From: an uncultured virus (IMG/VR IMGVR_UViG_3300010885_058378)
Lineage: Duplodnaviria > Heunggongvirae > Uroviricota > Caudoviricetes
IMG/VR virus record: IMGVR_UViG_3300010885_058378
Location: 111,482-131,481 of that record
Length of the DNA: 20,000 nucleotides
Direction: 5' to 3' (one strand)
Positions 1 to 11,944 of this stretch are shown here, one piece after another. The translations under genes were made by a program, and so were the position numbers. A model generated the notes under the pieces. The model saw only the letters and a program-made list of their open reading frames with translations, was not told where the DNA came from and searched no databases. Position 1 is the stretch's first letter, and each line of letters starts with the position of its first letter.

Positions 1-3000
1 AGTAGCTTCTCTTACGCTTCCTGTTTCTCTTAATGTTTGATTAAATGCCTTACGAGCATCTCTTTGATTACTAGCACCATTTAATCCTCCAGAAAGATTT
101 CTTTGAAGTCTTATAAATGTTTTATTAAGTTTGTCGGCTTCTTCTGGAGTATTTGTTAGTAATGTATTAACAAAACTTTCTCTATTCTTCTGAAGATCTC
201 TAACATTCTTTAAATCATCAAATGCTTTTTCTACTAATTCTGTGCTACTTGCTAATGTGTCTAAAGCTTCTCTTGTATCTCTTAATTGATCGTCTAATGA
301 TCTTAGTTGTATAGCAGATTTTTTAAGTTCATCAGGATCGCTCATGCCCTGTCTTTTTTCTTCTACTGCTGTTCTTTGTGCTTGTAAGTCAACAATTCTA
401 TTTTTAATTCCACCAACAGAGGTTTGTCCACCGGCTAATCCGGCCACATCACCCATAACTCTTGCTTGTTTCTCACCATAAGTTTCGCCAACTCCGGTCA
501 TAACCTCTCTAAGATTTCTATTCCCTTGGGTGCTAATATCTCTAGATTTCTTAAAATAATTCTGAGAATCTTTTGCTGCTTTACTAGCATCTCTAAGACC
601 TTCGGAGAAATCGGCTAATGCCCCTTGCTTAAACGATGATAATGCTTTTACTGCTTCAAGCGTTTTAACTCCAAAGGCCCCAAGAATATTATCAGCCTCT
701 CCTAATCCTTCTCTAAAAGCGTCTAATTCTGCTTGAGGCGTATCATTTTTTTTCTTAGATTCTTCTGCTAAATTATTTATTCTTGTTTCTGCTTGTTTTT
801 TAAGACTTGTCTTTTGTTCGTCTGATAAGTTTGTTTTATCTATTTGTTCATTAGTAGTTTTAATAGCCTCTGTTTTGGCTTGATCAACGTTCAAATTTGC
901 ATTAGTATTTAATTTTTCTGCTATACTTTTTGTTATAGCATTTGGTAATTGTTGTTGTAGTTGTGCTCCGCCTATTAACTGGTTCCTAGTTTTTTCATCA
1001 ACTCCTGCTGTTGCAGACTGTAAGGCTTGATTAAAATCTTTTTCAGAATAGGCATTTGGATTTTCAAGAACATTTAATTCTCTTAGCTTGGGTCCACGAT
1101 CTTGTGATTCTCCTCTTAATGCTGATCTACTTTCTTCGGCTGATGATTTTCTAACATCAGATTCGAATTTAATTCTATTAACAGATTCACTAATAATACT
1201 TGATAATTTTTCAAAACTAGCTGCTAGTTTTCTGCCAGCTTTGTCTGCAGCCTCTAAAGCATCAGACATTTGTTTTGTTTTTATTGCAGATTGAACCTGA
1301 ACATTTGTCAGTATTTTTTGATTAGCAACTTCATCTAATATTGCATCTTGTTTTTCTTTAGAAACCTTCTCATACCCACCTTCTTCCATAATTCTTGCTC
1401 TAACCGTTTTAAGAGCATCTTCATCTGCTAATACTAATGCTCTTCTAGCACCAATTAATTCTTTATCTGCTTGTATAGATTCTACACTAGCTCCAGTATT
1501 AATTTTTTGTGATATTAAAGCAAATGCCTTGTCTCCACTATCAGCATTTCTTTCAGCTATCTTGCTATCTAATTCATTAAAATCTTGAGTATCCATCTTC
1601 GGCTTTTCTGCTCCGGATAGAAACTCTGTCCATGTTCTGGTTTTACCCTTTTCATTTTGTGCAACCTTAGTCTCAGCAGAAACAGCTTTTAGAGATGATT
1701 CTGATGATCTAACAAGAGCCTTATCTAAAGCCTTTTGTAGATCTATATTACCAATATCTTTCTCAAAATCCTTGAAAGCCTTAGCTAAATCTTTTTCAGA
1801 AGCGGCCACTTCTTCAAATCGTAAATTCTTTTCCATTTCTAGAGCAGCAGTTTTTTGTGCTCCAGTAAAATCAGTAAAATAATCAGTAGTAGCATAAACT
1901 ACTGTTCCTAAAGCCGCTAATCCGCCTAATAGAGGATTTATAGCCATTAATTGAGAAGCAGTAGTTAAACCAGTTGCTAGTGTTGATCCGGCCTGTTCAA
2001 TAGCGGCACCCTTACCAGCAGCAGCAATCTTTCCTTCGTCTGTGGAAGTATCATACATTAGATTTGCAATATTTTTCCCTTGTCCACCAACTAATCCTGC
2101 CACCATACCAACGTCTCCCAAAGCTGTTCCAATTCCTTGAGACGCTGTTCCTGAGAAGTATCTTTCTTGAACAGCTTTTTTAATAGGACTATTTCTCCAA
2201 TCAGTCAACCCACCAGCGCCAACTCCTTTTTCGCCCTGCTCTTTGGCCATTTCATTAATCATTTCTCTTCTTTTACCAACTTCTTCCTTAGCAAGAGAGA
2301 GTGCTTCTGATGCTGATTTGACTGAGACACCTCTAACAGTTCCAGCATTCTTATACTCTTCTAATCTCATTGCAATAAGCTGCTTATCCATCTGGGCCAA
2401 TGTTTTACGATCAGTCATTGACTGAGAAATATAGCTTTGAATATCAGATCCACCAATACCCATATCCGATAATTCTGATTTTTTAATTCCTGTAACTTTT
2501 TGAGTAGCACTACTAAAAGACATTTCTTTTATTTCTTTGGCCTGTTCATCTAATCTGCGTTTAACTTCTTCTTTAATTTGACTAGCATTACCAAATGATG
2601 GTCCGTATCCTCCTGGTCCACCGCTAAGACTTTGTGTTAATTGCTTCTCCCTTTGTGCTTTAATACTTTTTTCTATCCTGTCGGCTTCTGTTAAAATGGC
2701 TTGCTGGGCACCACCAGAACCAAGAACTTTACCCTTTTTTGATTCTTTTAATCCTGCTTCTAAAAATTGTCGTTTTACTACTGCTGTTTTAGCTTGATCT
2801 CTAACATTCTTTAATGCTTTTTCTGCTGCTATTATAGTGTCTATTGATGCTCCAGTAATCTTGAGTCTTTCAACATCCTTAGTCATTGCCTTTTCAATAT
2901 CTTTATAAGATATGTCAGCTCCTGCCCCAACTTGCTCAAGAACTTTCTTAAAGCTTATCATACTATAACCAGCTTCTTCAAACCCTTTTGTTAATAGTTT

Positions 3001-3135
3001 AATATTATTAACTAGTTCTGATGAAGCTTCTATACTTTTACTATCAATAGTTTCTGGTCTGGTTTTTAATTTTTGAACTGCTGGTTCAGCAAAACCTTTT
3101 AATGCTTTCATTATTTCTTCGATACTAAAAACACT
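1..3135 (-). other. C-terminal helical/coiled-coil TMP region with Gly/Ala-rich hydrophobic segments
   Basis: Sequence rich in E/K/A/Q/L and poor in Pro. Hydrophobic stretches GIGTALGDVGMVAGLVGG (about 2136..2084) and LMAINPLLGGLAALGTVVYA (1950..1891). Confidence 0.75.
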
Positions 3136-6100
3136 ACCTCCAGTAGCAAATCTTTGAATTACTCCTCCACCAACTACTCCTCCCTTATTATAACCCTGTA
3201 ATTTATCCGCTTTATTTAATGTCTCTAACTTGCCATATCCTATTTTTTCTGCTGCTTTCTTATTAACAACAAATTCACCAGGAGTTAATAATGCAGGAAC
3301 AGTGTCCTTTGATGATATTCCTGCTTGTCCTCCTTGAGCAAAGGTCTCGATATTGGTTGGCTTCAAGGGAGATGATCCAACATATTTTAATGCTAATCCT
3401 AGTGGTTTTTCAAAAAGTTTGGATTCAAATGAATTTATTAATTCGGGATCTCCAGATTGTATTCTGGACATAAGTTGACCCAATAAAGCCCCTTCTCTTA
3501 CATCTCCTTCACTTCCGGCATAAATAGATTTTCTTGATCCTCCAGGCAAGGTAAACTCTGTTCCATCTTCGGATTTTAATGTTTGAGATCCTTCTTGAAC
3601 ACGTACTCCAACCGACATCATCCCAGCATCTGGATTTTTATCGAACTTACCTTTTAATCCTGTTTGATTTTCAGTAGGAGCATATTTATCTTTAAGAGTA
3701 TCGTAATTATCATGCATCCATTGTACCACTAGTCCTTTTTGTAATTCATAATCTAAATCATAAGTTTTTGGATCTAAAGTTTCATCAAAACTTAATACCA
3801 TTGGCTTTCCTGATCTATCTCCTTGAGCAACAGTGAAGTTGCTTCCTCCATTAACTCTCATCTTAGCTTGTTGTTCTGCTTTATTCTTTTCTGTATATAA
3901 GTAGAATCCTTCTCCTTGACCATATCCTTTAGCAATATTAGAAAGAGCGCCCTTTTCTTTAAAGCTTTTTAGAACGCTATCATCAACTCCAGTATTGCTT
4001 CCGTGATATAGTTTAACTTTTCCTCCAGTAGCATATCCTCTATTTTTTCTCCACATTTTTTCATCATTAGTTTTGGTCTCAAACTCTTTTGGCTTGCGAC
4101 CTTGTTTTTCCATAGCCTCTTGTATTCTTTTTTGTTTATTAGCCTGGGCAAGTTCATATCTTTCTTGTTCTGGTGATGTTTTTTTAGATGGTATTAGTCC
4201 AAATCTTTTGTTTATCTCCCAGTCTGGAATAGCATAGTCTTTATATCTATTATCTAATCGTTCTTCTAATTTTGCTGTGAGTTCTTCTTGGCTCATGCCC
4301 AAAGTCTTTGCTCGTGCGGCAATATCGGGTGGAGAATATGATCCTCTTACCCAGCCACCGTCAGAAAGCATTTGTATGTCTTCTTTGACGGGTTCTGGAA
4401 TTCCATATTGTTGTCTAAAATGTTTTTGGAATTCTTCAACAGCCTTGCCTCTACTATTACTATCTATTGTTCTTTTAACTTCTGTTGGAATATCAGGATC
4501 GATACCAAATATTTTTGCTGCTTTAGGTCCGATTCCCATTGGGAAGTCAATCGGACGAGTTCTTAAAGCATCATCTAATATTGTAGCGTCTGCTGATCCA
4601 AAAATTTGTTCTAGTAAAGCTCCTTCAATATTACCTTGACCTAATGTTTCTCTTTGTTTTTTACTTAATTTCTTTGGTTCTATGCCAAGAAGTTTTGAAG
4701 CTCCTCCTACAATTTCTTCTGTTTGACCACTAAGATAATCAATTACATTTTGATATTGATTTGGTAATCCTCTCTGAACTATTGAAGCATCTATTGATCT
4801 TTCTTGTCCAGACGAATCAACTCCAAGATTCCAAGTTTCTGGCCCTAGTAATCCAGTATATCCCAATGGATTTAAGCCTACTAATCCTAATTGTTTGGAT
4901 GATAATACAGCATTAGTTGTTTCTGCTAAAGTTGTAGCCTTTTGAGTTCCTTGTGATTGTTTAAATTTATCTATTAAGTAATCTCTTGTTGCAATATAGT
5001 AGGCCAGTTTATCTGCTTTTGTTTCTGGTCTAAATGCAGAATTCCAGTATTTTAATTTTCCTCCTTCAGCGGTATCTCTTACTGTTTTTCCTGAGAATGG
5101 ACCAAAACTTGCGTCATTTGGTAATCTGTCTGTTCCAAATCTTTTTAATATCTCTGTTCCTTGTGCTGGTAATATCCCAGAAGACTTCTTGACCTGAGTG
5201 GCCTTTTCTACATTTTTTAGTATAGCCTCTTCTAGTCCAGAAGGCATTGCTGTTGGAACTCCGCCAAATTCACCGGACATCTGTTCTGATAGTTGTGCTG
5301 CTATGGCTTCTTTTGTTATGTCTGATGGTTGTGTCGATACGGCGGATTTTCTTGATGGGTCTAGTCCATAAATTTCTGGATATTTTGCAGATAGGGCGCT
5401 TATTATATTAAATGCTCTATAGCCAAATGCTCCTTTAGATACTCGGTCTCTTTTGTCCCTTATCTGCTTAACTTGATCAGCTATTTCTGGATAATTTTTC
5501 TTTAAATCAGCACTAACATTACCATAAGGACCACCAGGAGCATTTGATAATATTTGTGAAACCTCATCATTGGATCGTATTTTTTCTTGATCAACAAATT
5601 TTTGTATTTCTTCTATTAGCATAGGAACCATAGTGCTACGATTACGCAATTGTGATCTATTGCCCATTAATATTGATGCTATATCAGGATTCATTAAATT
5701 AGCCAGCGATTTATCATCACCATGAAATAATGCGTCTCTAACTGCAGTAGCACTAATGTCTTCTATTCTAGGAATATCTTTAACATCTATTCCTGCTCTT
5801 TGGTATTTACCTAACACTTTATCGTCTTTACCAGAGGTTATTGCCATAGCTCCTTTTAATCTAGCAAATTTTCTTCTATCTCCATCGCCAATAACTTCCA
5901 TAAATTTTGGTAAACTACCGGCAGGCTGACCTTGGGTGCTAATCATAGCATTTCCAAAATTCATTTTGCTGAATAAGGTCCTTATATCTGCTGGAAAAAT
6001 ACCATATCGCGCAGCATGATCTATGCCTTCTTTACCAACAATCATTGGAAGATCAGGAGCAACACTAACAAGAATATCTTCTAAAGAAGAGCTTGGGTTC

Positions 6101-9100
6101 TTTGCTAACATATTTTCTAATAAAGTATCTAACGCTCCTCTATGACCTCTTGTTGGTGGGGCAAAACCGCCCATATAAAATCCACCAGCCTGAACTATTT
6201 CTGGTAATTCATTCTCTTTTTTACGCCGTAAGCCAAAACCATCTGATTTTCTTCCTAATACTGTTGCCTTTTTTCCAAGCTCATCTCGTAATATTGTTTC
6301 TTCCAAACCAAAATCAGTATCAGCTCCTCTTGTGGTTCCTGGTTTACGACCATATAGCCCTTGTCCAGTAGCGTCTCTTTGTTCTCTATTTGCTCGTAAT
6401 TTTTCTTGTTCTGATTGAGTATTAGAACTTAATATATATGCTCTATCAACATCTCTTAAATAAGCATCAAGTTTGGATTCACTAGCAGTTGATGTTATAG
6501 CAATAACTTCATTAACTTTATCAATATCTTCAGGAGTTAATATTTGGGAGCGAATTGTTTTTCTTAAAGAAGCATCATCATTGGCGCTAAATCCTGTAGC
6601 CAAACTACTTTTTCCACTACCAGCAGCACCAGCGATTGCTGTTAGTCTTGACAAAGAACCAGTTTTTCTTGCTTTAGCAGATAGTTCTCCTAGTTTTGTT
6701 GTATAGTCACTAACATCGGTTATTCCTAGTTTTTCCATTGCTTTATCAACAATACTAGCATTTGCTGGATCTCTAAGAACATCAGTATCAATAATTCCAA
6801 TTTTTCTTTCTACTTTTCCACCAGCAGCATAAGTTTGTCTCTGAATACCAGCACTACCCAATAGATCAGTTAGTGTAGAATCTAAAGCTCCTTGAAGATT
6901 ACTATCAAGTCTAGGATAGTTCTGAACTAGTGTTGTTAAAAATTCTTCTTTCCCACTATCTTCTATTCTATCAATATAAGATTGAGAAATACTATTATCT
7001 AATAATGCCTGATTAACTTCTGGATTTAATGGTTTAAAATCTTTAGCCTTTTTAATACCAAGAGATTTTGCCCAAAGAGAGGATGCGGCGGTGGCTGCTT
7101 CGGGAGTTTTAGCAGGCTTGTCTCCCCTGCTAATAGATCGATTTTGTTGTATAATTTGATCTAATGTTCCAACTTTGTATGAACGTCCATATACAACATC
7201 CGAACTGTTATAGCTAGACTCTAAAGAATCAAATGCATCCGCTAAATCATTATTGTCTCCACCAAATAAAGAAACAACTCTTGATTTATATTTATCAAAA
7301 CTCTCTGATGATCGTGTTCGTAATCCTTGAAATAATTGGTGGGTCATTTCGTGATAAAAAGTATCATTTTTTCTACCAGAAAGTCTTCCGGTGCTCATGG
7401 TGATCGCGCCACGGCCAGTAGCTTTAGCTGTGGTTTGCATCTGATCCATGGCAGTTAATTCTGCTTGGTTTTTTAATTTTTTAGTATTAGATATCTTCAT
7501 TTGAAGATCATTAATCTCATCCCAAGTTTGTTTAGCTAATGCTTCATCATATGAAAAAGATCCGTCATCAAAAGTTTTTACTTGTGTTTTTATTATTTTC
7601 TTCAATTCTTTTTGTTTTTCTGCTACTAATTTTTCATATCCATAAAGATCCTGGTCATTGGCCTCTGTATATCCAGAACTAGATAGGTCATAGCCAGATG
7701 TTCTTTTGGTGCCGGTGCCAGTTCTATCGAATTGGCCAAGACCTCTTAATCCTAAATCAGTAAAATCAATATGATTTGGTAGAGCTAATGATAAATCTTC
7801 TCTAGGCAGTCCTATGAATTTAGCAAAGTCGCTCATTCTTCTATAAATAGCGCTATTAGCTAATTTACTCTTGAAAGAATCTGCAAACTGCTTTCTATCG
7901 AATGGCATTGAGTCAAAAGCTTCGGTTGCTTTTGCTTGATCCACTTTGAATCTAAAGTCTTCTGGATATTCCAAGAAGGATCCTCCACTAAAAGCTTTAT
8001 CAACTTGTTCTTTATTTAGCTTGGCGTCTATTTCTTTGAAATAGGCATTACTAATTCTTTTGGGAAATGGAAAAGTTCCACTTCCAAATGATCGGGTTTC
8101 TTTTGCTTTTCCTCCGACCATGAACCTGGCCAATCCTTTGGTTTCTTTCATCTTCTTTACAAAACCATTGTCATCCAGTGTAGGTATTTTTCTTGTTCGT
8201 CGTTGTATTTTGTTATTAATAATTCTATCTGGATCACCTTCTGGAAGATAATTAAACATATAATCATCTCTAATGACTCTATCCCAAGATGATGTTTTCA
8301 CATTCCCAAATCCTTCATTATTTTGCATTATTTTTAATCTGTTAGCTAATTTATCAGATTGTATAATATCTTGTCCTGGTCCAGTTCCGTGCTCCTTGGC
8401 TACTGCTGCTTTAATTAGTGTATCATTTAATGATTGTAATTTAAGAAGGGGTCTTCCATAAACATCAACCTGATTTGTATCTTTAAATGCTTGCGATACA
8501 TTTTCTGCTCCTAAATCTGTAATAAAGTCAATAGTTATTTGCTTAGCAGCTCTTGCCTTCTCTCTATTGCTAGCAGAGGCTGGTCCACCAGAAGCCCCAT
8601 AAACTTCTCTTTCTTGTTTAGATAATCTCATTTCAAATGCATCAACACCATCTAGCCTTGAAGATGTTTTGAATCTACCTTGCTCTTTAGGGTATAATAG
8701 AGTTTTATTATCAGGTTTTTTATATTTTTTATTAAATAATTCTGGAGTTGGATCAACCTCAACCGCAATACTGTCTCCATCACTAGCTTTTAATTTACCC
8801 GCATTGGCTTTATTGCTTTTTGCAAAAGGTAGCGGATCTATATCATCATATAATTTACCTCCTTGAGTAACCATGCCAGCATTAGCAAATCTTTGTCTTT
8901 TTTTTGCTGATCCGGCCCTTATACTTCCACCGCCCCCATACTTATTCATATTATGAAGATTATCTGATCCTATAGTCTCAACAGCCTTTTTTCGTATCAC
9001 AAATTCTCCTGGCTCTAACATTGCAGGAACAGTATCTCCACTACCAGTTCCTGGAACAACTCCACCTCTTGCAAATTTTCTAATTACTCCACCATTAGCT

Positions 9101-10650
9101 TTACCATCTGGTCCTCTTTTAACTCCAGTACTAAAACCACTAGCAAATTGAGTTAAAGCTTTGGCACCCTTAAATGCTGTTATAACAGCAAGAGCGGGTA
9201 ATATTCCTTTAACAGCATCTGTCACTTTAATTAGTCCACTAGCTAAACTTAAAGCTCCTCTTATTAATGACTGAAAACCTTTTGATTGTCCTATTTCTCT
9301 GAATAGAGCAAAAAACTCTTGTCTTACTTTGCTAATCTGATTTGCTAAAGAAAGTTGTGCAGTTGCGGCGTCTTTCGCTAACGATCCTTGGCCAGCTTGA
9401 GCGGTCTTTAATGCTTCTTGAGCAACTGTGAACTGCTGAATAAGCGGAATAACTTTACCTATTTGTCGGAATCCACCAAGTTCTTCAACTATCTTAGAGA
9501 ACTGAGCAGTTCTTGGATCAATTCCACTCAACCCCTTACTTAATAATTCAACAGCTTTATATGCTCCTACGAATTTACCTTCGGTATCAGTTAGATTAAC
9601 TCCAAACTCTTTGAGAGAATCAATTGTGCTTCCTCTCTGAATACGAGTAAAAATAGTTCTTAAACCAGTAGCAATAGTTTCAGCACTTTCACGAGTTGTA
9701 GCACGAACACTTGTAAACACTGCTATAAATTCATTTAAAGCATCCTTACCTTCACTAACTCCTTTACTTGCAGTTGCAAATACGCTACCCGTTCTTTGAA
9801 CAGCAGTAATAATGTCAGAAGATTCAACGGCGAATTTTGCAGCAACAGTATTTACAGCACCTAGTGCTCCTTCTAAATCATCAGCACTAATACCAAACTG
9901 TCTCATTAATGCGATACTTCCTTCTACTGTCTCATTCATATTATCAAATGATGGAGCTAAACTACTTAAAGCTAAAGCTCTTAATGCTTTTTCTGTTTCT
10001 CTCGCACTCAAACCAGCCTGTGCTAATGTAGAAGCAACAGAGGTTAAATCTTTAGAACTAACACCAAATGTTGTTGATAGATTTGTAATTTGTTCTTGTA
10101 GTTTGGCAAGACCGGTTGACGATTCACCAGTAACTTGTTGTAGTTTAACTAACTCTTTATCATAATCAATAAATGCTTGAACACCCTGACTAATACTATT
10201 TGTTAATCCGTATATAACACTAGTAACAGTACTAAATGCTACGAATCTTCTAATGGCAAGACCAGCCTGTTTACCGAACTCTTGCATCTCTGCTGATGCT
10301 GATCCAAGATCTTTTGCTGATGAGGCTGATGCTTTGTTAAGTTTATTAACAGCATTAGCTGCCGCATTGATTTGTTGTGGAACATTATTTATTTTGACAC
10401 TATTTATACTATTACCAAAAGCTTTGATAGCTGCCGAGGCAGCAGTAGCAGATGTTGTTGTTGAACCAAATGCTGCATTTAAGCCTTTTAGGGACGAGGA
10501 CAAAGCCGCAACATTTTTAGTAACAGCAGGATCAAGCTTAAAAGTAATATTTGCATTAATGTTACCAAGATCTTTTTTAATTTGTGCAGCAATTTGCTTT
10601 ACATTTGTTGGTCCTTGTAAATTCAGTTGTGCAGTTAAGTTGAATGCCAT
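1..10650 (-). CDS. Giant tape measure protein carrying multiple enzymatic cargo domains (at least 3550 aa, 3' end outside the window)
   Basis: Hand translation from ATG at 10650 (MAFNLTAQLNLQGPTNVKQIAAQIKK...) found no stop down to base 1. AGGA Shine-Dalgarno lies 10 nt upstream. It has an N-terminal Ala/Ser-rich helical TMP core and sits downstream of the tail tube and chaperone-position genes. It is probably absent from the ORF track because its stop is outside the window. Confidence 0.93.
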   Translation of the reverse strand, partial: MAFNLTAQLNLQGPTNVKQIAAQIKKDLGNINANITFKLDPAVTKNVAALSSSLKGLNAAFGSTTTSATAASAAIKAFGNSINSVKINNVPQQINAAANAVNKLNKASASSAKDLGSASAEMQEFGKQAGLAIRRFVAFSTVTSVIYGLTNSISQGVQAFIDYDKELVKLQQVTGESSTGLAKLQEQITNLSTTFGVSSKDLTSVASTLAQAGLSARETEKALRALALSSLAPSFDNMNETVEGSIALMRQFGISADDLEGALGAVNTVAAKFAVESSDIITAVQRTGSVFATASKGVSEGKDALNEFIAVFTSVRATTRESAETIATGLRTIFTRIQRGSTIDSLKEFGVNLTDTEGKFVGAYKAVELLSKGLSGIDPRTAQFSKIVEELGGFRQIGKVIPLIQQFTVAQEALKTAQAGQGSLAKDAATAQLSLANQISKVRQEFFALFREIGQSKGFQSLIRGALSLASGLIKVTDAVKGILPALAVITAFKGAKALTQFASGFSTGVKRGPDGKANGGVIRKFARGGVVPGTGSGDTVPAMLEPGEFVIRKKAVETIGSDNLHNMNKYGGGGSIRAGSAKKRQRFANAGMVTQGGKLYDDIDPLPFAKSNKANAGKLKASDGDSIAVEVDPTPELFNKKYKKPDNKTLLYPKEQGRFKTSSRLDGVDAFEMRLSKQEREVYGASGGPASASNREKARAAKQITIDFITDLGAENVSQAFKDTNQVDVYGRPLLKLQSLNDTLIKAAVAKEHGTGPGQDIIQSDKLANRLKIMQNNEGFGNVKTSSWDRVIRDDYMFNYLPEGDPDRIINNKIQRRTRKIPTLDDNGFVKKMKETKGLARFMVGGKAKETRSFGSGTFPFPKRISNAYFKEIDAKLNKEQVDKAFSGGSFLEYPEDFRFKVDQAKATEAFDSMPFDRKQFADSFKSKLANSAIYRRMSDFAKFIGLPREDLSLALPNHIDFTDLGLRGLGQFDRTGTGTKRTSGYDLSSSGYTEANDQDLYGYEKLVAEKQKELKKIIKTQVKTFDDGSFSYDEALAKQTWDEINDLQMKISNTKKLKNQAELTAMDQMQTTAKATGRGAITMSTGRLSGRKNDTFYHEMTHQLFQGLRTRSSESFDKYKSRVVSLFGGDNNDLADAFDSLESSYNSSDVVYGRSYKVGTLDQIIQQNRSISRGDKPAKTPEAATAASSLWAKSLGIKKAKDFKPLNPEVNQALLDNSISQSYIDRIEDSGKEEFLTTLVQNYPRLDSNLQGALDSTLTDLLGSAGIQRQTYAAGGKVERKIGIIDTDVLRDPANASIVDKAMEKLGITDVSDYTTKLGELSAKARKTGSLSRLTAIAGAAGSGKSSLATGFSANDDASLRKTIRSQILTPEDIDKVNEVIAITSTASESKLDAYLRDVDRAYILSSNTQSEQEKLRANREQRDATGQGLYGRKPGTTRGADTDFGLEETILRDELGKKATVLGRKSDGFGLRRKKENELPEIVQAGGFYMGGFAPPTRGHRGALDTLLENMLAKNPSSSLEDILVSVAPDLPMIVGKEGIDHAARYGIFPADIRTLFSKMNFGNAMISTQGQPAGSLPKFMEVIGDGDRRKFARLKGAMAITSGKDDKVLGKYQRAGIDVKDIPRIEDISATAVRDALFHGDDKSLANLMNPDIASILMGNRSQLRNRSTMVPMLIEEIQKFVDQEKIRSNDEVSQILSNAPGGPYGNVSADLKKNYPEIADQVKQIRDKRDRVSKGAFGYRAFNIISALSAKYPEIYGLDPSRKSAVSTQPSDITKEAIAAQLSEQMSGEFGGVPTAMPSGLEEAILKNVEKATQVKKSSGILPAQGTEILKRFGTDRLPNDASFGPFSGKTVRDTAEGGKLKYWNSAFRPETKADKLAYYIATRDYLIDKFKQSQGTQKATTLAETTNAVLSSKQLGLVGLNPLGYTGLLGPETWNLGVDSSGQERSIDASIVQRGLPNQYQNVIDYLSGQTEEIVGGASKLLGIEPKKLSKKQRETLGQGNIEGALLEQIFGSADATILDDALRTRPIDFPMGIGPKAAKIFGIDPDIPTEVKRTIDSNSRGKAVEEFQKHFRQQYGIPEPVKEDIQMLSDGGWVRGSYSPPDIAARAKTLGMSQEELTAKLEERLDNRYKDYAIPDWEINKRFGLIPSKKTSPEQERYELAQANKQKRIQEAMEKQGRKPKEFETKTNDEKMWRKNRGYATGGKVKLYHGSNTGVDDSVLKSFKEKGALSNIAKGYGQGEGFYLYTEKNKAEQQAKMRVNGGSNFTVAQGDRSGKPMVLSFDETLDPKTYDLDYELQKGLVVQWMHDNYDTLKDKYAPTENQTGLKGKFDKNPDAGMMSVGVRVQEGSQTLKSEDGTEFTLPGGSRKSIYAGSEGDVREGALLGQLMSRIQSGDPELINSFESKLFEKPLGLALKYVGSSPLKPTNIETFAQGGQAGISSKDTVPALLTPGEFVVNKKAAEKIGYGKLETLNKADKLQGYNKGGVVGGGVIQRFATGGSVFSIEEIMKALKGFAEPAVQKLKTRPETIDSKSIEASSELVNNIKLLTKGFEEAGYSMISFKKVLEQVGAGADISYKDIEKAMTKDVERLKITGASIDTIIAAEKALKNVRDQAKTAVVKRQFLEAGLKESKKGKVLGSGGAQQAILTEADRIEKSIKAQREKQLTQSLSGGPGGYGPSFGNASQIKEEVKRRLDEQAKEIKEMSFSSATQKVTGIKKSELSDMGIGGSDIQSYISQSMTDRKTLAQMDKQLIAMRLEEYKNAGTVRGVSVKSASEALSLAKEEVGKRREMINEMAKEQGEKGVGAGGLTDWRNSPIKKAVQERYFSGTASQGIGTALGDVGMVAGLVGGQGKNIANLMYDTSTDEGKIAAAGKGAAIEQAGSTLATGLTTASQLMAINPLLGGLAALGTVVYATTDYFTDFTGAQKTAALEMEKNLRFEEVAASEKDLAKAFKDFEKDIGNIDLQKALDKALVRSSESSLKAVSAETKVAQNEKGKTRTWTEFLSGAEKPKMDTQDFNELDSKIAERNADSGDKAFALISQKINTGASVESIQADKELIGARRALVLADEDALKTVRARIMEEGGYEKVSKEKQDAILDEVANQKILTNVQVQSAIKTKQMSDALEAADKAGRKLAASFEKLSSIISESVNRIKFESDVRKSSAEESRSALRGESQDRGPKLRELNVLENPNAYSEKDFNQALQSATAGVDEKTRNQLIGGAQLQQQLPNAITKSIAEKLNTNANLNVDQAKTEAIKTTNEQIDKTNLSDEQKTSLKKQAETRINNLAEESKKKNDTPQAELDAFREGLGEADNILGAFGVKTLEAVKALSSFKQGALADFSEGLRDASKAAKDSQNYFKKSRDISTQGNRNLREVMTGVGETYGEKQARVMGDVAGLAGGQTSVGGIKNRIVDLQAQRTAVEEKRQGMSDPDELKKSAIQLRSLDDQLRDTREALDTLASSTELVEKAFDDLKNVRDLQKNRESFVNTLLTNTPEEADKLNKTFIRLQRNLSGGLNGASNQRDARKAFNQTLRETGSVREAT
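3136..3342 (-). repeat. Copy 2 of the FAxGG...DTVPA.L.PGEFV...YxxGG TMP module
   Basis: FAQGGQAGISSKDTVPALLTPGEFVVNKKAAEKIGYGKLETLNKADKLQGYNKGGVVGGGVIQRFATGG, clearly paralogous to 8926..9102. Confidence 0.9.
3343..4020 (-). other. ADP-ribosyltransferase-fold cassette (H-Y class, PARP/diphtheria toxin-like) within the TMP
   Basis: KLYHGSN (LYHGS 4011..3997) followed by YGQGEGFYLYTEKNKAEQQA (GQGEGFY 3921..3901), matching the YHG[ST]...G.G[FIV]Y NAD-binding signature. The third (Glu) catalytic residue was not identified. Confidence 0.72.
4036..4353 (-). other. Small cassette (about 105 aa), possibly XRE-type HTH-like
   Basis: Bounded by LSDGG and YATGG. IAARAKTLGMSQEELTAKL...AIPDWEINKR resembles the XRE HTH pattern (G.TQ.ELA.KL...IS.WE.G.R) with an insertion. 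Confidence 0.3.
4380..4900 (-). other. Probable PD-(D/E)xK nuclease-fold domain within the TMP
   Basis: GNIEGALLE helix (4635..4609), RPIDF (PIDF 4554..4543) and TEVKRT (EVK 4482..4474) occur in the canonical motif I-II-III order. The N-terminal boundary is approximate. Confidence 0.55.
5650..6190 (-). other. HxGH-superfamily nucleotidyltransferase domain (NMNAT/NadD/CoaD-like) within the TMP
   Basis: FYMGGFAPPTRGH (GGFAPPTRGH 6171..6142) fits GxFxPx(T/H)xGH. The C-terminal ISATAVR (5757..5737) fits the ISS/AT.IR motif. Confidence 0.85.
6200..6816 (-). other. P-loop kinase-like domain within the TMP
   Basis: Hydrophobic strand plus Walker A, LTAIAGAAGSGKSSLA (GAAGSGKS 6630..6607). A later Arg-rich segment LRANREQRD could be a kinase lid. 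Confidence 0.75.
6840..8109 (-). other. Zincin metallopeptidase cassette within the TMP
   Basis: GAITMS strand followed by TFYHEMTHQLF (HEMTH 7353..7339). A distal helix KEEFLTTLV (EE 6948..6943) is a candidate third Zn ligand. Bounded by FMVGG and YAAGG. Confidence 0.7.
8390..8800 (-). other. Staphylococcal nuclease (thermonuclease, SNase) domain within the TMP
   Basis: All four SNase motifs occur in order: DGDSI (DGDS 8781..8770), RLDGVDAFE (8658..8632), DVYGR (8466..8452) and LNDTLIKAAVA (about 8430..8398). Confidence 0.85.
8926..9102 (-). repeat. Copy 1 of the FAxGG...DTVPA.L.PGEFV...YxxGG TMP module
   Basis: KANGGVIRKFARGGVVPGTGSGDTVPAMLEPGEFVIRKKAVETIGSDNLHNMNKYGGGG. Confidence 0.9.
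9320..10260 (-). other. Tape measure core domain (TP901/PhageMin_Tail-like)
   Basis: FIDYDKELVKLQQVTG...LSTTFGVSSKDL...LAQAGLS...VAAKFAVESSDI...ESAETIATGLRTIFTRI...LKEFGVNLTDTEGKF is the typical TMP core pattern. Confidence 0.88.
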
Positions 10651-10752: not shown

Positions 10753-11652
10753 CTAAGCTGGAGCAACCTCTTTTGATTCAGAAACGACGGGCTGAGCTGG
10801 TTGGGTCTCTGGCTCGACTGTTTCTGTTTTTGCTGTTGGTTCATCTTTTTTGTCTTCTTCTAAGATAACTGGGTTTCCGTTTTCATCTAGGAAAGGCTGT
10901 GCATCAACGAGATAATCTCCATCAGAAGTTACTCTGTTGCCATACTTGTCAACAAAATTACCTTCTTCGTCTATGAATCTTCCACTCTCATCAATCAGCC
11001 TACCTTCCGCATCAATTAGTCTGCCCTTCTTGTCTACTAATCGTAGCTTATCATCAACAAATTTAAACTTCTTTAAGAATTTGTTTTCTGGTAAATTACT
11101 TTCGTAGTCATTATCCAAACCATACAGCATATTGGCCAAGTTTTGTGCTCCTAGTAGTCCAACCTGATCAGTTGATCTATTAAGATAGTCTTCCATATTA
11201 TTAAAATACGGTTGCTTGCTATCATTATACACCACACAAACACTAACTAAATAGTTAAATCTAGCATTATCAGCTTGACCTTCAGCACTATGGTTGTCTA
11301 GAGATGTACGAACACTGATAAGATCTCGTATTTCATCTCTGACGCCCTTCATTTTAATCGCAAGGTCTTTGGCTTCGTTTAAACTAAATCCACCCTTAGC
11401 AAGCCTCTTCTCGCCATCAAGCAACTCTTTTTGCAAGGTGGTGAACTTAGCCTGTTTTTCATCATTCCATAATCCTTGATCTTCTAATAGATCGTCTAGT
11501 TTTGCCCTTACAACACTTTTGCTTTTAATAGCATCAGTAAAAGCTTGATTATAAACTTTCTGAGCCTCTCTTTGATCATTTAAAGACGGTGTTTTAACAA
11601 GAAACTCTTTTTCTGCACCATCAACTGTTGTTTTAAAAGTCTTAGTCTTCAT
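10753..11652 (-). CDS. Putative tail assembly chaperone with 7-aa repeats and an acidic tail (299 aa)
   Basis: Immediately precedes the TMP gene. The N-terminus has a chaperone-like strand-strand-helix pattern (KTFKTTVDGAEKEFLVKTPSLNDQ). Start revised from TTG 11679 to ATG 11652 because AAGGAG precedes that ATG. Function inferred from position. Confidence 0.55.
   Translation of the reverse strand: MKTKTFKTTVDGAEKEFLVKTPSLNDQREAQKVYNQAFTDAIKSKSVVRAKLDDLLEDQGLWNDEKQAKFTTLQKELLDGEKRLAKGGFSLNEAKDLAIKMKGVRDEIRDLISVRTSLDNHSAEGQADNARFNYLVSVCVVYNDSKQPYFNNMEDYLNRSTDQVGLLGAQNLANMLYGLDNDYESNLPENKFLKKFKFVDDKLRLVDKKGRLIDAEGRLIDESGRFIDEEGNFVDKYGNRVTSDGDYLVDAQPFLDENGNPVILEEDKKDEPTAKTETVEPETQPAQPVVSESKEVAPA
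10912..11058 (-). repeat. Tandem 7-aa repeats [VI]D-x-x-G-[RN]-[LF]
   Basis: VDDKLRL VDKKGRL IDAEGRL IDESGRF IDEEGNF VDKYGNR VTSDGDY. Confidence 0.9.
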
Positions 11653-11944
11653 ATCTATCTCCTTCTTTCTTTTTATCAAAGTTAAATTGATATTTTTGTT
11701 TTACTGTTCCGTTATTTCCAAAATAATTGCTAAGATCATCAATTGCTGATCGTGCTTGTTTATTTCCATTATTGAGTATGCTATTTCTAGCATATTCCCA
11801 CATATCTTCAAATTCTTCAGCTTCTTTGCTATCATTTTCCCATAAATGTCCAAAAATAGCTTCGAATCTTGCTAGTGAGCCAATCATTGTGGTTTGAAAT
11901 TTTTTATATACATTATCTACTAATATTTTTTGTTCGTTTGTCAT
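11642..11944 (-). CDS. Hypothetical protein (100 aa) in the tail chaperone region
   Basis: ORF track; fits the operon and overlaps the next gene by 11 nt. Confidence 0.75.
   Translation of the reverse strand: MTNEQKILVDNVYKKFQTTMIGSLARFEAIFGHLWENDSKEAEEFEDMWEYARNSILNNGNKQARSAIDDLSNYFGNNGTVKQKYQFNFDKKKEGDRYED

Follow-up and report, generated by a model that had tools for sequence, protein, structure and literature searches.

The stretch of DNA analysed here (the window; 20,000 nucleotides of IMG/VR record IMGVR_UViG_3300010885_058378, an uncultured virus of the Caudoviricetes) carries the first part of the gene of a giant phage tail tape measure protein (TMP), in which a short peptide with the core [FY]-A-x-G-G recurs at the borders of enzyme cassettes. 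As judged from its distribution in this protein and its homologues, this peptide, here called the joint, is a junction-specific element that is conserved at the protein level and delimits swappable cassettes. The best single reading of the joint is that of a putative processing site, a reading to which we give slightly less than an even chance.

The protein is encoded by a single open frame on the minus strand, running from position 10650 to position 1 of the window (1..10650; 3,550 codons), and corresponds to residues 1–3,550 of the 5,642-residue TMP, the full protein (P0002) being 100% identical. The whole gene occupies C1:105203-122131 (minus strand) of the 131,481-base virus record (G000), the remainder of which contains phage replication and structural genes. 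Two complete relatives measure 229 and 244 kb, both with terminal repeats. The N-terminal tape measure domain (residues 1–516; 9103..10650, minus strand) matches PF10145 (E 3.9e-24; 86.1 bits, cut-off 33.2), TIGR01760 (E 2.1e-30; 106 bits, cut-off 28.8) and nine PHROG tape-measure families, and on these curated profiles (PF10145 and TIGR01760) the predicted product is classed as a phage tail TMP. Pfam searches with the whole protein and with seven segments of it placed this domain alone above its cut-off, all hints in the cassettes being below theirs, and a megablast search of the window against cultured phages gave no match.

The eleven motifs listed in the preliminary description were all located exactly where it had placed them, in one minus-strand frame. 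Joint module 1 (residues 517–592; 8875..9102, minus strand), which opens cargo zone 1, contains KANGG (9102, residue 517) and FARGG (9075, residue 526), followed by the core DTVPAMLEPGEFV and by YGGGG (8940, residue 571) and FANAG (8889, residue 588). Four isolated joints follow on the same strand: FMVGG (residues 843–847; 8110..8124), YAAGG (residues 1274–1278; 6817..6831), LSDGG (residues 2095–2099; 4354..4368), which is a variant reading I-Q-M-L-S-D-G-G-W-V, and YATGG (residues 2206–2210; 4021..4035). Joint module 2 (residues 2437–2505; 3136..3342, minus strand) closes the zone and consists of FAQGG (3342, residue 2437), the core DTVPALLTPGEFV, YNKGG (3192, residue 2487) and FATGG (3150, residue 2501). 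The two modules bracket the entire cargo zone of the window, with joints forming both ends of each. The strict motif [FY]AxGG occurs five times, compared with a mean of 0.17 in shuffled sequences, and the looser [FY]xxGG nine times, compared with 1.70; neither count was reached in any of 2000 shuffles. The other 113 open reading frames (ORFs) of the contig (37,380 residues) contain no strict motif, with 0.51 expected.

A search with residues 500–2520 as the query scored 2001 candidates, 169 of which reached E ≤ 0.001, and the homologue counts given here are based on the best 120 of these 169 (2,193–6,201 residues in length). These proteins contain 646 strict motifs compared with 27.6 expected, and only two of the 120 lack one. 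At the residue preceding A-x-G-G, the enrichment is 29-fold for Phe, 15-fold for Tyr and 4.9-fold for Leu. From 825 distinct contexts, the extended consensus is GG-x-[VI]-Q-[KR]-[FYL]-A-x-G-G-x-V, a peptide of about 13 residues that is common to module-linked and isolated joints. The basic residues that the preliminary description had noticed ahead of the motif are evident in this larger set, with Lys or Arg at position −1 in 40–52% of the distinct contexts compared with a background of 12.3%. Joints can also occur in tandem with a nine-residue period. The accompanying statement that only weak look-alikes occur inside cassettes had overlooked FYMGG (residues 1491–1495; 6166..6180, minus strand), a full [FY]xxGG match within the kinase–nucleotidyltransferase block; it lies in the glycine-rich start of the nucleotidyltransferase and has no cluster of breakpoints.

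The association of joints with cassette borders was assessed from the ends of homologous segments. BLAST alignments of 119 homologues to the full protein have 765 internal breakpoints, of which 47.8% lie within 20 residues of an [FY]xxGG motif, compared with 9.7% for random placement, and none of 2000 random placements reached this value. In an all-against-all comparison of the 120 proteins, 46.6% of breakpoints fall within 15 residues of [FYLM]xxGG, compared with 12.3% in the null, and every one of the 120 proteins shows the excess. Of the 882 strict motifs, 672 are accompanied by five or more breakpoints within 15 residues. Coverage of the query among the homologues drops in steps (100, 79, 62, 41, 22, 14 and 4%). 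In the window protein, 20 homology segments start at residues 840–849, by FMVGG; 45 start at residues 1260–1279 and 22 end at residues 1280–1289, around YAAGG; 24 end at residues 2100–2109, after LSDGG; and 24 start at residues 2200–2209, at YATGG. Comparison of motif positions with domain boundaries in homologous TMPs had been proposed as a check in the preliminary description, and by these tests the positions are far from random. Its claim that the motif marks cassette edges stands in so far as breakpoints cluster at joints, and needs correcting in that FYMGG is internal to a block and some breakpoints are free of any motif.

The cassette bounded by YATGG and FAQGG, which is predicted to have an ADP-ribosyltransferase (ART) fold, allows embedded and free-standing copies to be compared. 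A search of 1.84 billion representatives gave 154 relatives of it at E ≤ 0.001. Of 140 further relatives, 122 are no longer than 400 residues, and 121 of these 122 lack the strict motif; the loose motif is found in 32 of the 122 and is internal among the matches listed. Among the matches listed, alignments to free-standing copies run from 1–4 residues past YATGG up to FAQGG; embedded copies align across both joints. The preliminary description had noted that LYHGS begins three residues past YATGG, which is correct. On these alignments, the joint is taken not to be part of the cargo enzymes.

The modules at either end of the cargo zone share an invariant core, D-T-V-P-A-x-L-x-P-G-E-F-V, and the module occurs at least five times in the full protein, the additional copies lying beyond the window. 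Among cultured phages, 144 records match it, most of them with a tape measure annotation; by host name, 101 are from Gordonia and others from Synechococcus, Rhodococcus, Pelagibacter and further hosts. The TMP of Gordonia phage Bosnia, for which Pfam returned nothing useful, has three significant module matches (three to four copies) and six [FYLM]AxGG motifs compared with 0.5 expected (none of 5000 shuffles). Phage lambda gpH does contain FATGG (residue 733) and YATGG (residue 778), as stated in the preliminary description, and its residues 730–788 match a profile of 362 module instances with 23.6 bits (E 0.0017 for a nominal database of one million). A single-sequence phmmer search of the PDB aligned residues 732–795 of lambda 8iyk_H at E 0.27 and also aligned the JBD30 TMP (8rk3_A; E 0.2–0.3). 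From the profile match, the window module is homologous to gpH 730–788. Two module subtypes were seen in L003, L007, L010 and P0002 beyond residue 3,700: subtype A has an F-A-x-G-G head followed by V-P-G, and subtype B has the head Y-A-S-x-G-Q, then N-F-x-P-x-G-T, and the tail G-G-V-V-Y-L-x-x-G-G. Subtype B flanks the second cargo zone, whose variability is far greater and which six of 119 homologues share.

We propose that the giant TMP may double as a cargo carrier, in which copies of an ancient tape-measure module would enclose interchangeable enzyme cassettes (SNase-like, HExxH, kinase–nucleotidyltransferase and ART-fold), with the same ~13-residue joint bounding each of them. The joint would serve as a protease recognition site at which the chain is cut into separate proteins, either late in tail assembly, as for lambda gpH and T5 pb2, or after ejection into the host, which would leave the released enzymes free to work on their own. 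A release of this kind, modelled on viral polyproteins, was the hypothesis of the preliminary description. When the joint is aligned with the T5 site, its scissile bond is predicted to lie just before the alanine ([FYL]|A-x-G-G). Passages of the 2025 Ur-lambda paper (PMC12617516) place gpH 730–788 in a C-terminal fragment that is removed after tail assembly, in the maturation of gpH to gpH* plus gpHC. The preliminary description had described gpH as being processed near the motif; FATGG and YATGG do lie inside the removed fragment, and FATGG can only be said to lie near the estimated cut. The cleavage of T5 pb2 after Arg1127, as described in the pb2 passages of PMC10038345, parts the ruler body (pb2*) from a C-terminal enzymatic piece (pb2C), and in the T5 record A-E-G-G, which equals the A-x-G-G core of the joint, follows Arg1127 directly. 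For the JBD30 TMP, passages of PMC11445458 assume a cut at residue 1066 by analogy only.

Candidates for the protease are a conserved, phage-encoded trypsin-like and subtilase pair, the HExxH cassette in those TMPs that contain it, and a host enzyme. A trypsin-like gene (PF00089, E 7e-12) lies beside a subtilase gene (PF00082, E 2e-51) at C1:13249-14899, and an adjacent pair of this type is present in both of the two complete relatives; in two fragmentary relatives, the trypsin-like gene was found in neither and the subtilase in one. In the virus record, the pair follows two giant ORFs of 1,406 and 1,654 residues. A hydrophobic residue at P4 and an aromatic residue or Leu at P1 suit subtilases. 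With position 0 of the joint taken as P1, the [VI] at −3 and the [FYL] at 0 would be P4 and P1, a pattern that may fit this class. For T5, host involvement was reportedly described by Zweig and Cummings in 1973, going by the title. In its widest form, the joint would be a general TMP processing code that marks cuts in lambda gpH (at or beside FATGG 733) and in many siphophage TMPs and that has been multiplied in large uncultured phages into a tail-lumen polyprotein delivering shuffled host-takeover enzymes, each freed just before A-x-G-G; we regard this extension as rather unlikely.

Several observations weigh against processing. Lys or Arg at −1 is found in just about half of the joints, and breakpoints without a motif occur at approximately residues 640, 1770–1780 and 1900–1990. 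For gpH, the cited passages of PMC12617516 state that both the cut site and the catalyst are unknown and describe the removed fragment as about 14 kDa or as 'residues ~690 to 817'. The calculated mass is 14.4 kDa for a fragment starting at residue 713 and 12.5 kDa for one starting at residue 734. These published estimates would put the cut 0–40 residues upstream of FATGG, which is therefore near the estimated cut and not demonstrably at it. The module profile misses T5 pb2 (best score −4 bits, in an unrelated place), and pb2 contains no [FYLM]AxGG and has Arg instead of an aromatic residue before the alanine; owing to the profile mismatch, the T5 site was dropped as a homologue of the joint, which leaves a four-residue resemblance. 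With respect to the embedded HExxH cassette as the catalyst, the 73 homologues without this cassette have 1.79 joints per 1000 residues and the 46 with it 1.40, and an AlphaFold model of the cassette with both joints leaves the N-terminal joint disordered. Finally, the same module occurs in ordinary TMPs without cargo, and its primary role may therefore be structural.

A reading as an uncut element, with the cassettes acting while tethered, is a close rival, to which we give somewhat lower odds than to processing. The joint might be a short β-hairpin hinge (strand, A-x-G-G turn, strand) that allows bulky cassettes to line up along the ruler or to pack in the tail lumen, or it might dock onto a partner such as a tail assembly chaperone, the tube wall or the tip proteins. 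The occurrence of the module in mostly cargo-free TMPs of the 144 records, with three to four copies in that of Bosnia, agrees with such a role, as do the nine-residue tandem period, the independence of joint density from the HExxH cassette and the statement, in the passages of PMC12617516, that the T5 and lambda TMPs alone are known to be cut. AlphaFold places all four modelled joints at the very edges of folded domains and gives hairpin-like strands around YAAGG, where a small hairpin (model residues 445–450) ends the domain, and around FAQGG. Three of the four nevertheless lie in low-confidence segments: the FMVGG joint has a pLDDT below 50 in the model of residues 830–1290 (model residues 1–22), and in the ART-fold model the mean pLDDT is 49 for the block with YATGG (model residues 1–10) and 55 for that with FAQGG. 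The two joints of one cassette, that with HExxH, are not predicted to pair from N- to C-terminus. In lambda, gpH residues ~690–817 are not resolved by cryo-electron microscopy (passages of PMC12617516), so that the module region is no rigid part of the virion, and a residue-specific consensus over ten positions would be needless for a mere spacer.

The joint could instead be mainly a recombination seam with no biochemical function of its own, at which swaps that keep the motif yield in-frame, viable proteins. Cassettes are exchanged at joints, as seen in the stepwise loss of homologue coverage, but there is no usable homology at the DNA level: for 37 joints from five genes, the longest exact match between two 30-nucleotide joint stretches has a median of 5 nucleotides (95th percentile 8, maximum 21), glycine codons are used as in the background (p 0.48) and alanine codons show just a slight preference for GCT (p 0.022). 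Joint codons vary much as elsewhere in the gene, whereas the amino acids are conserved, which indicates that selection acts on the peptide. On the codon evidence the joint is kept by selection on the protein, with no DNA-level signal, and an origin mainly as a seam seems improbable. A last reading is that the motif arises by chance in a protein of low complexity that is rich in glycine. Plain GG is indeed somewhat over-represented (39 compared with 28.3; 41 of 2000 shuffles), but the shuffles, the enrichment of Phe and Tyr before A-x-G-G and the tie to breakpoints in every one of the 120 proteins refute this reading, and we give it practically no credence.

The cargo zone comprises five units, all on the minus strand. 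Cassette 1 (residues 593–842; 8125..8874) is SNase-like by its ESM Atlas features, the nearest named clusters being PF00565 SNase (score 0.93, 188 shared features, 27 of 30 matches); it has no Pfam match at E ≤ 1 and is common to 21 of 119 homologues. Sequence searches of the PDB at E ≤ 1 with three cassettes returned chance-level rows for cassette 1 and nothing for the other two.

Cassette 2 (residues 852–1273; 6832..8097) is predicted from an AlphaFold model and an alignment to be a helical domain with an invariant HExxH motif, a candidate zinc peptidase. The model of residues 830–1290 (21 sequences) has a pLDDT of 85.1 and a pTM of 0.80, and His271, Glu272 and His275 are invariant in the 21 sequences. 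Foldseek found no match to this model. In a VIA search, helical hairpins dominate and the sole whole-domain row is anthrax lethal factor 1yqy_A (Z 6.4, root-mean-square deviation 6.7, 168 aligned); assignment to the lethal-factor family was rejected, since a Z of 6.4 is too weak to name a family. No Pfam peptidase family, including MPTase-PolyVal, matches at E ≤ 1. The cassette is present in 47 of 119 homologues, lies at residue 774, 1656, 1822, 2398, 906 or 2161 in different viral loci and has varied neighbours in 18 metagenome loci. Joints lie on both sides of it in 26 of 27 related loci, the remaining one reading FMAGS on the N-terminal side. No free-standing copy was found: three matches of 237–755 residues, all from contigs of 2–6 kb, contain joints in all cases and HExxH in two and look like fragments of multi-cassette proteins.

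Block 3 (residues 1279–2094; 4369..6816) is predicted to combine a P-loop kinase, a HIGH-type nucleotidyltransferase and an uncharacterised C-terminal part. Walker-A and HIGH-type signatures are present, Pfam gives weak hints (P-loop families and HIGH_NTase1_ass; E 0.03–0.1) and the ESM Atlas offers leads only (0.85), to phage clusters that join a kinase with a cytidylyltransferase (Zeta_toxin/AAA_33 plus CTP_transf_like). Its internal sub-boundaries, at approximately residue 1775 and at residues 1900–1990, have no joint. Cassette 4 (residues 2100–2205; 4036..4353) is a small domain, called 'HTH-like' in the preliminary description, that is common to 21 of 119 homologues.

Cassette 5 (residues 2211–2436; 3343..4020) was modelled by AlphaFold from 51 sequences (pLDDT 79.2, pTM 0.77). 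In a second look with VIA, at least 48 of 50 rows belong to the ART superfamily (Z 5.5–8.5), the best being Tpt1 8tg6 (Z 8.5, root-mean-square deviation 3.6, 89 aligned), and ART folds also dominate in Foldseek, although at E 0.03 or weaker. The model thus gives modest support to an ART fold. His17, Glu103 and Tyr224 are invariant in the 51 sequences and are candidate H-Y-E-type residues; Pfam assigned no family to the 51 homologues. The top Foldseek row for the ART-fold model (window 3316–4053, minus strand) is 9k3a_B, a chain of 1,071 residues from the pre-ejectosome of cyanophage A4 (E 0.03, probability 0.60), which hints at a similar domain in the ejected proteins of a podophage.

Beyond module 2, a helical tape-measure body (residues 2506–3550; 1..3135, minus strand) extends past the window to the third module near residue 3790; residues 2510–3780 are covered to at least 60% in 61 of 119 homologues. 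Immediately upstream of the TMP gene, an ORF of 308 residues (window 10753–11679, minus strand) is, by position alone, a putative assembly chaperone. It has C-terminal tandem repeats resembling G-R-L-I-D-x-E and overlaps an ORF of 100 residues (11642–11944), an arrangement that recalls the G/GT frameshift pair. PHROG searches with 11 upstream ORFs gave one match, to a family of unknown function. Downstream of the TMP gene, two large proteins (C1:101742-105200 and 91101-94781) carry FGE-sulfatase (C-type-lectin-like) domains, and an ORF at C1:39701-41005 has an Mtd_N match; both folds are typical of the targets of diversity-generating retroelements. Past the tail genes that follow the TMP gene lie two more giant ORFs, of ~2,576 (C1:74907-82637) and ~2,140 residues (C1:82637-89059), the latter without a Pfam match. 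Elsewhere in the record, a Volactin-family actin homologue (PF25216, E 5e-64) lies close to a RuvB-like ATPase (C1:2744-3742 and 1408-2328). At C1:52625-54679 and 60358-63437, a RecA-like gene contains LAGLIDADG and homing-endonuclease domains, and DNA polymerase III alpha is split, the break showing a weak, sub-cut-off intein-splicing match; inteins seem to be present in both of these replication genes.

Earlier work has described TMPs with a single wall-hydrolase domain, polyvalent proteins and TMP maturation in lambda and T5. Lambda gpH, which shares with the window TMP a module with FATGG and YATGG inside a segment that is removed after assembly (passages of PMC12617516), has a single module and no cargo cassettes, whereas the window TMP has at least five modules and isolated joints that bound each cassette. 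Among TMPs that enter the host, P1 Sit carries an SLT domain (described in passages of PMC9024508) and the ruler T5 pb2 an enzymatic domain (passages of PMC10038345). Cell-wall hydrolase domains are embedded in mycobacteriophage TMPs. Each of these proteins has one small envelope-directed domain; in contrast, the two cargo zones of the window family carry several large enzyme cassettes that are apparently directed to the cytoplasm. Polyvalent proteins (Iyer et al., 2017; PMC5512222) occur in phages and conjugative elements, and an embedded metallopeptidase has been proposed to release their units. They likewise gather many unrelated enzymatic domains (nuclease, peptidase-like, kinase, nucleotidyltransferase and ART) in one virion-associated polypeptide and shuffle them extensively, and the predicted domains of the window TMP show the same combination of several unrelated enzymatic activities and shuffled architectures by which such proteins are recognised. 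The window TMP differs in that the tape measure is itself the carrier, TMP modules flank the cargo and the units are delimited by a defined joint peptide; the phrase 'tape measure' has no occurrence in PMC5512222, which gives no cleavage motif where it deals with cleavage and processing. A literature search, which covered mostly titles and the beginnings of abstracts and excluded subscription journals, found no description of a cargo-carrying giant TMP or of the joint, and the occurrences of the motif strings that surfaced were primers or unrelated.

The cut site and mechanism for gpH have been open since the 1970s, and the family offers a precise candidate site, conserved from lambda to phages of more than 200 kb. 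Cutting at the joints would make the tail lumen a second route, besides the capsid, by which a programmable set of enzymes is delivered into the host, and the joint would offer a seam that could be used as it stands to engineer cargo into phage tails. Without cutting, the joint would still be the rule by which such proteins are assembled from cassettes.

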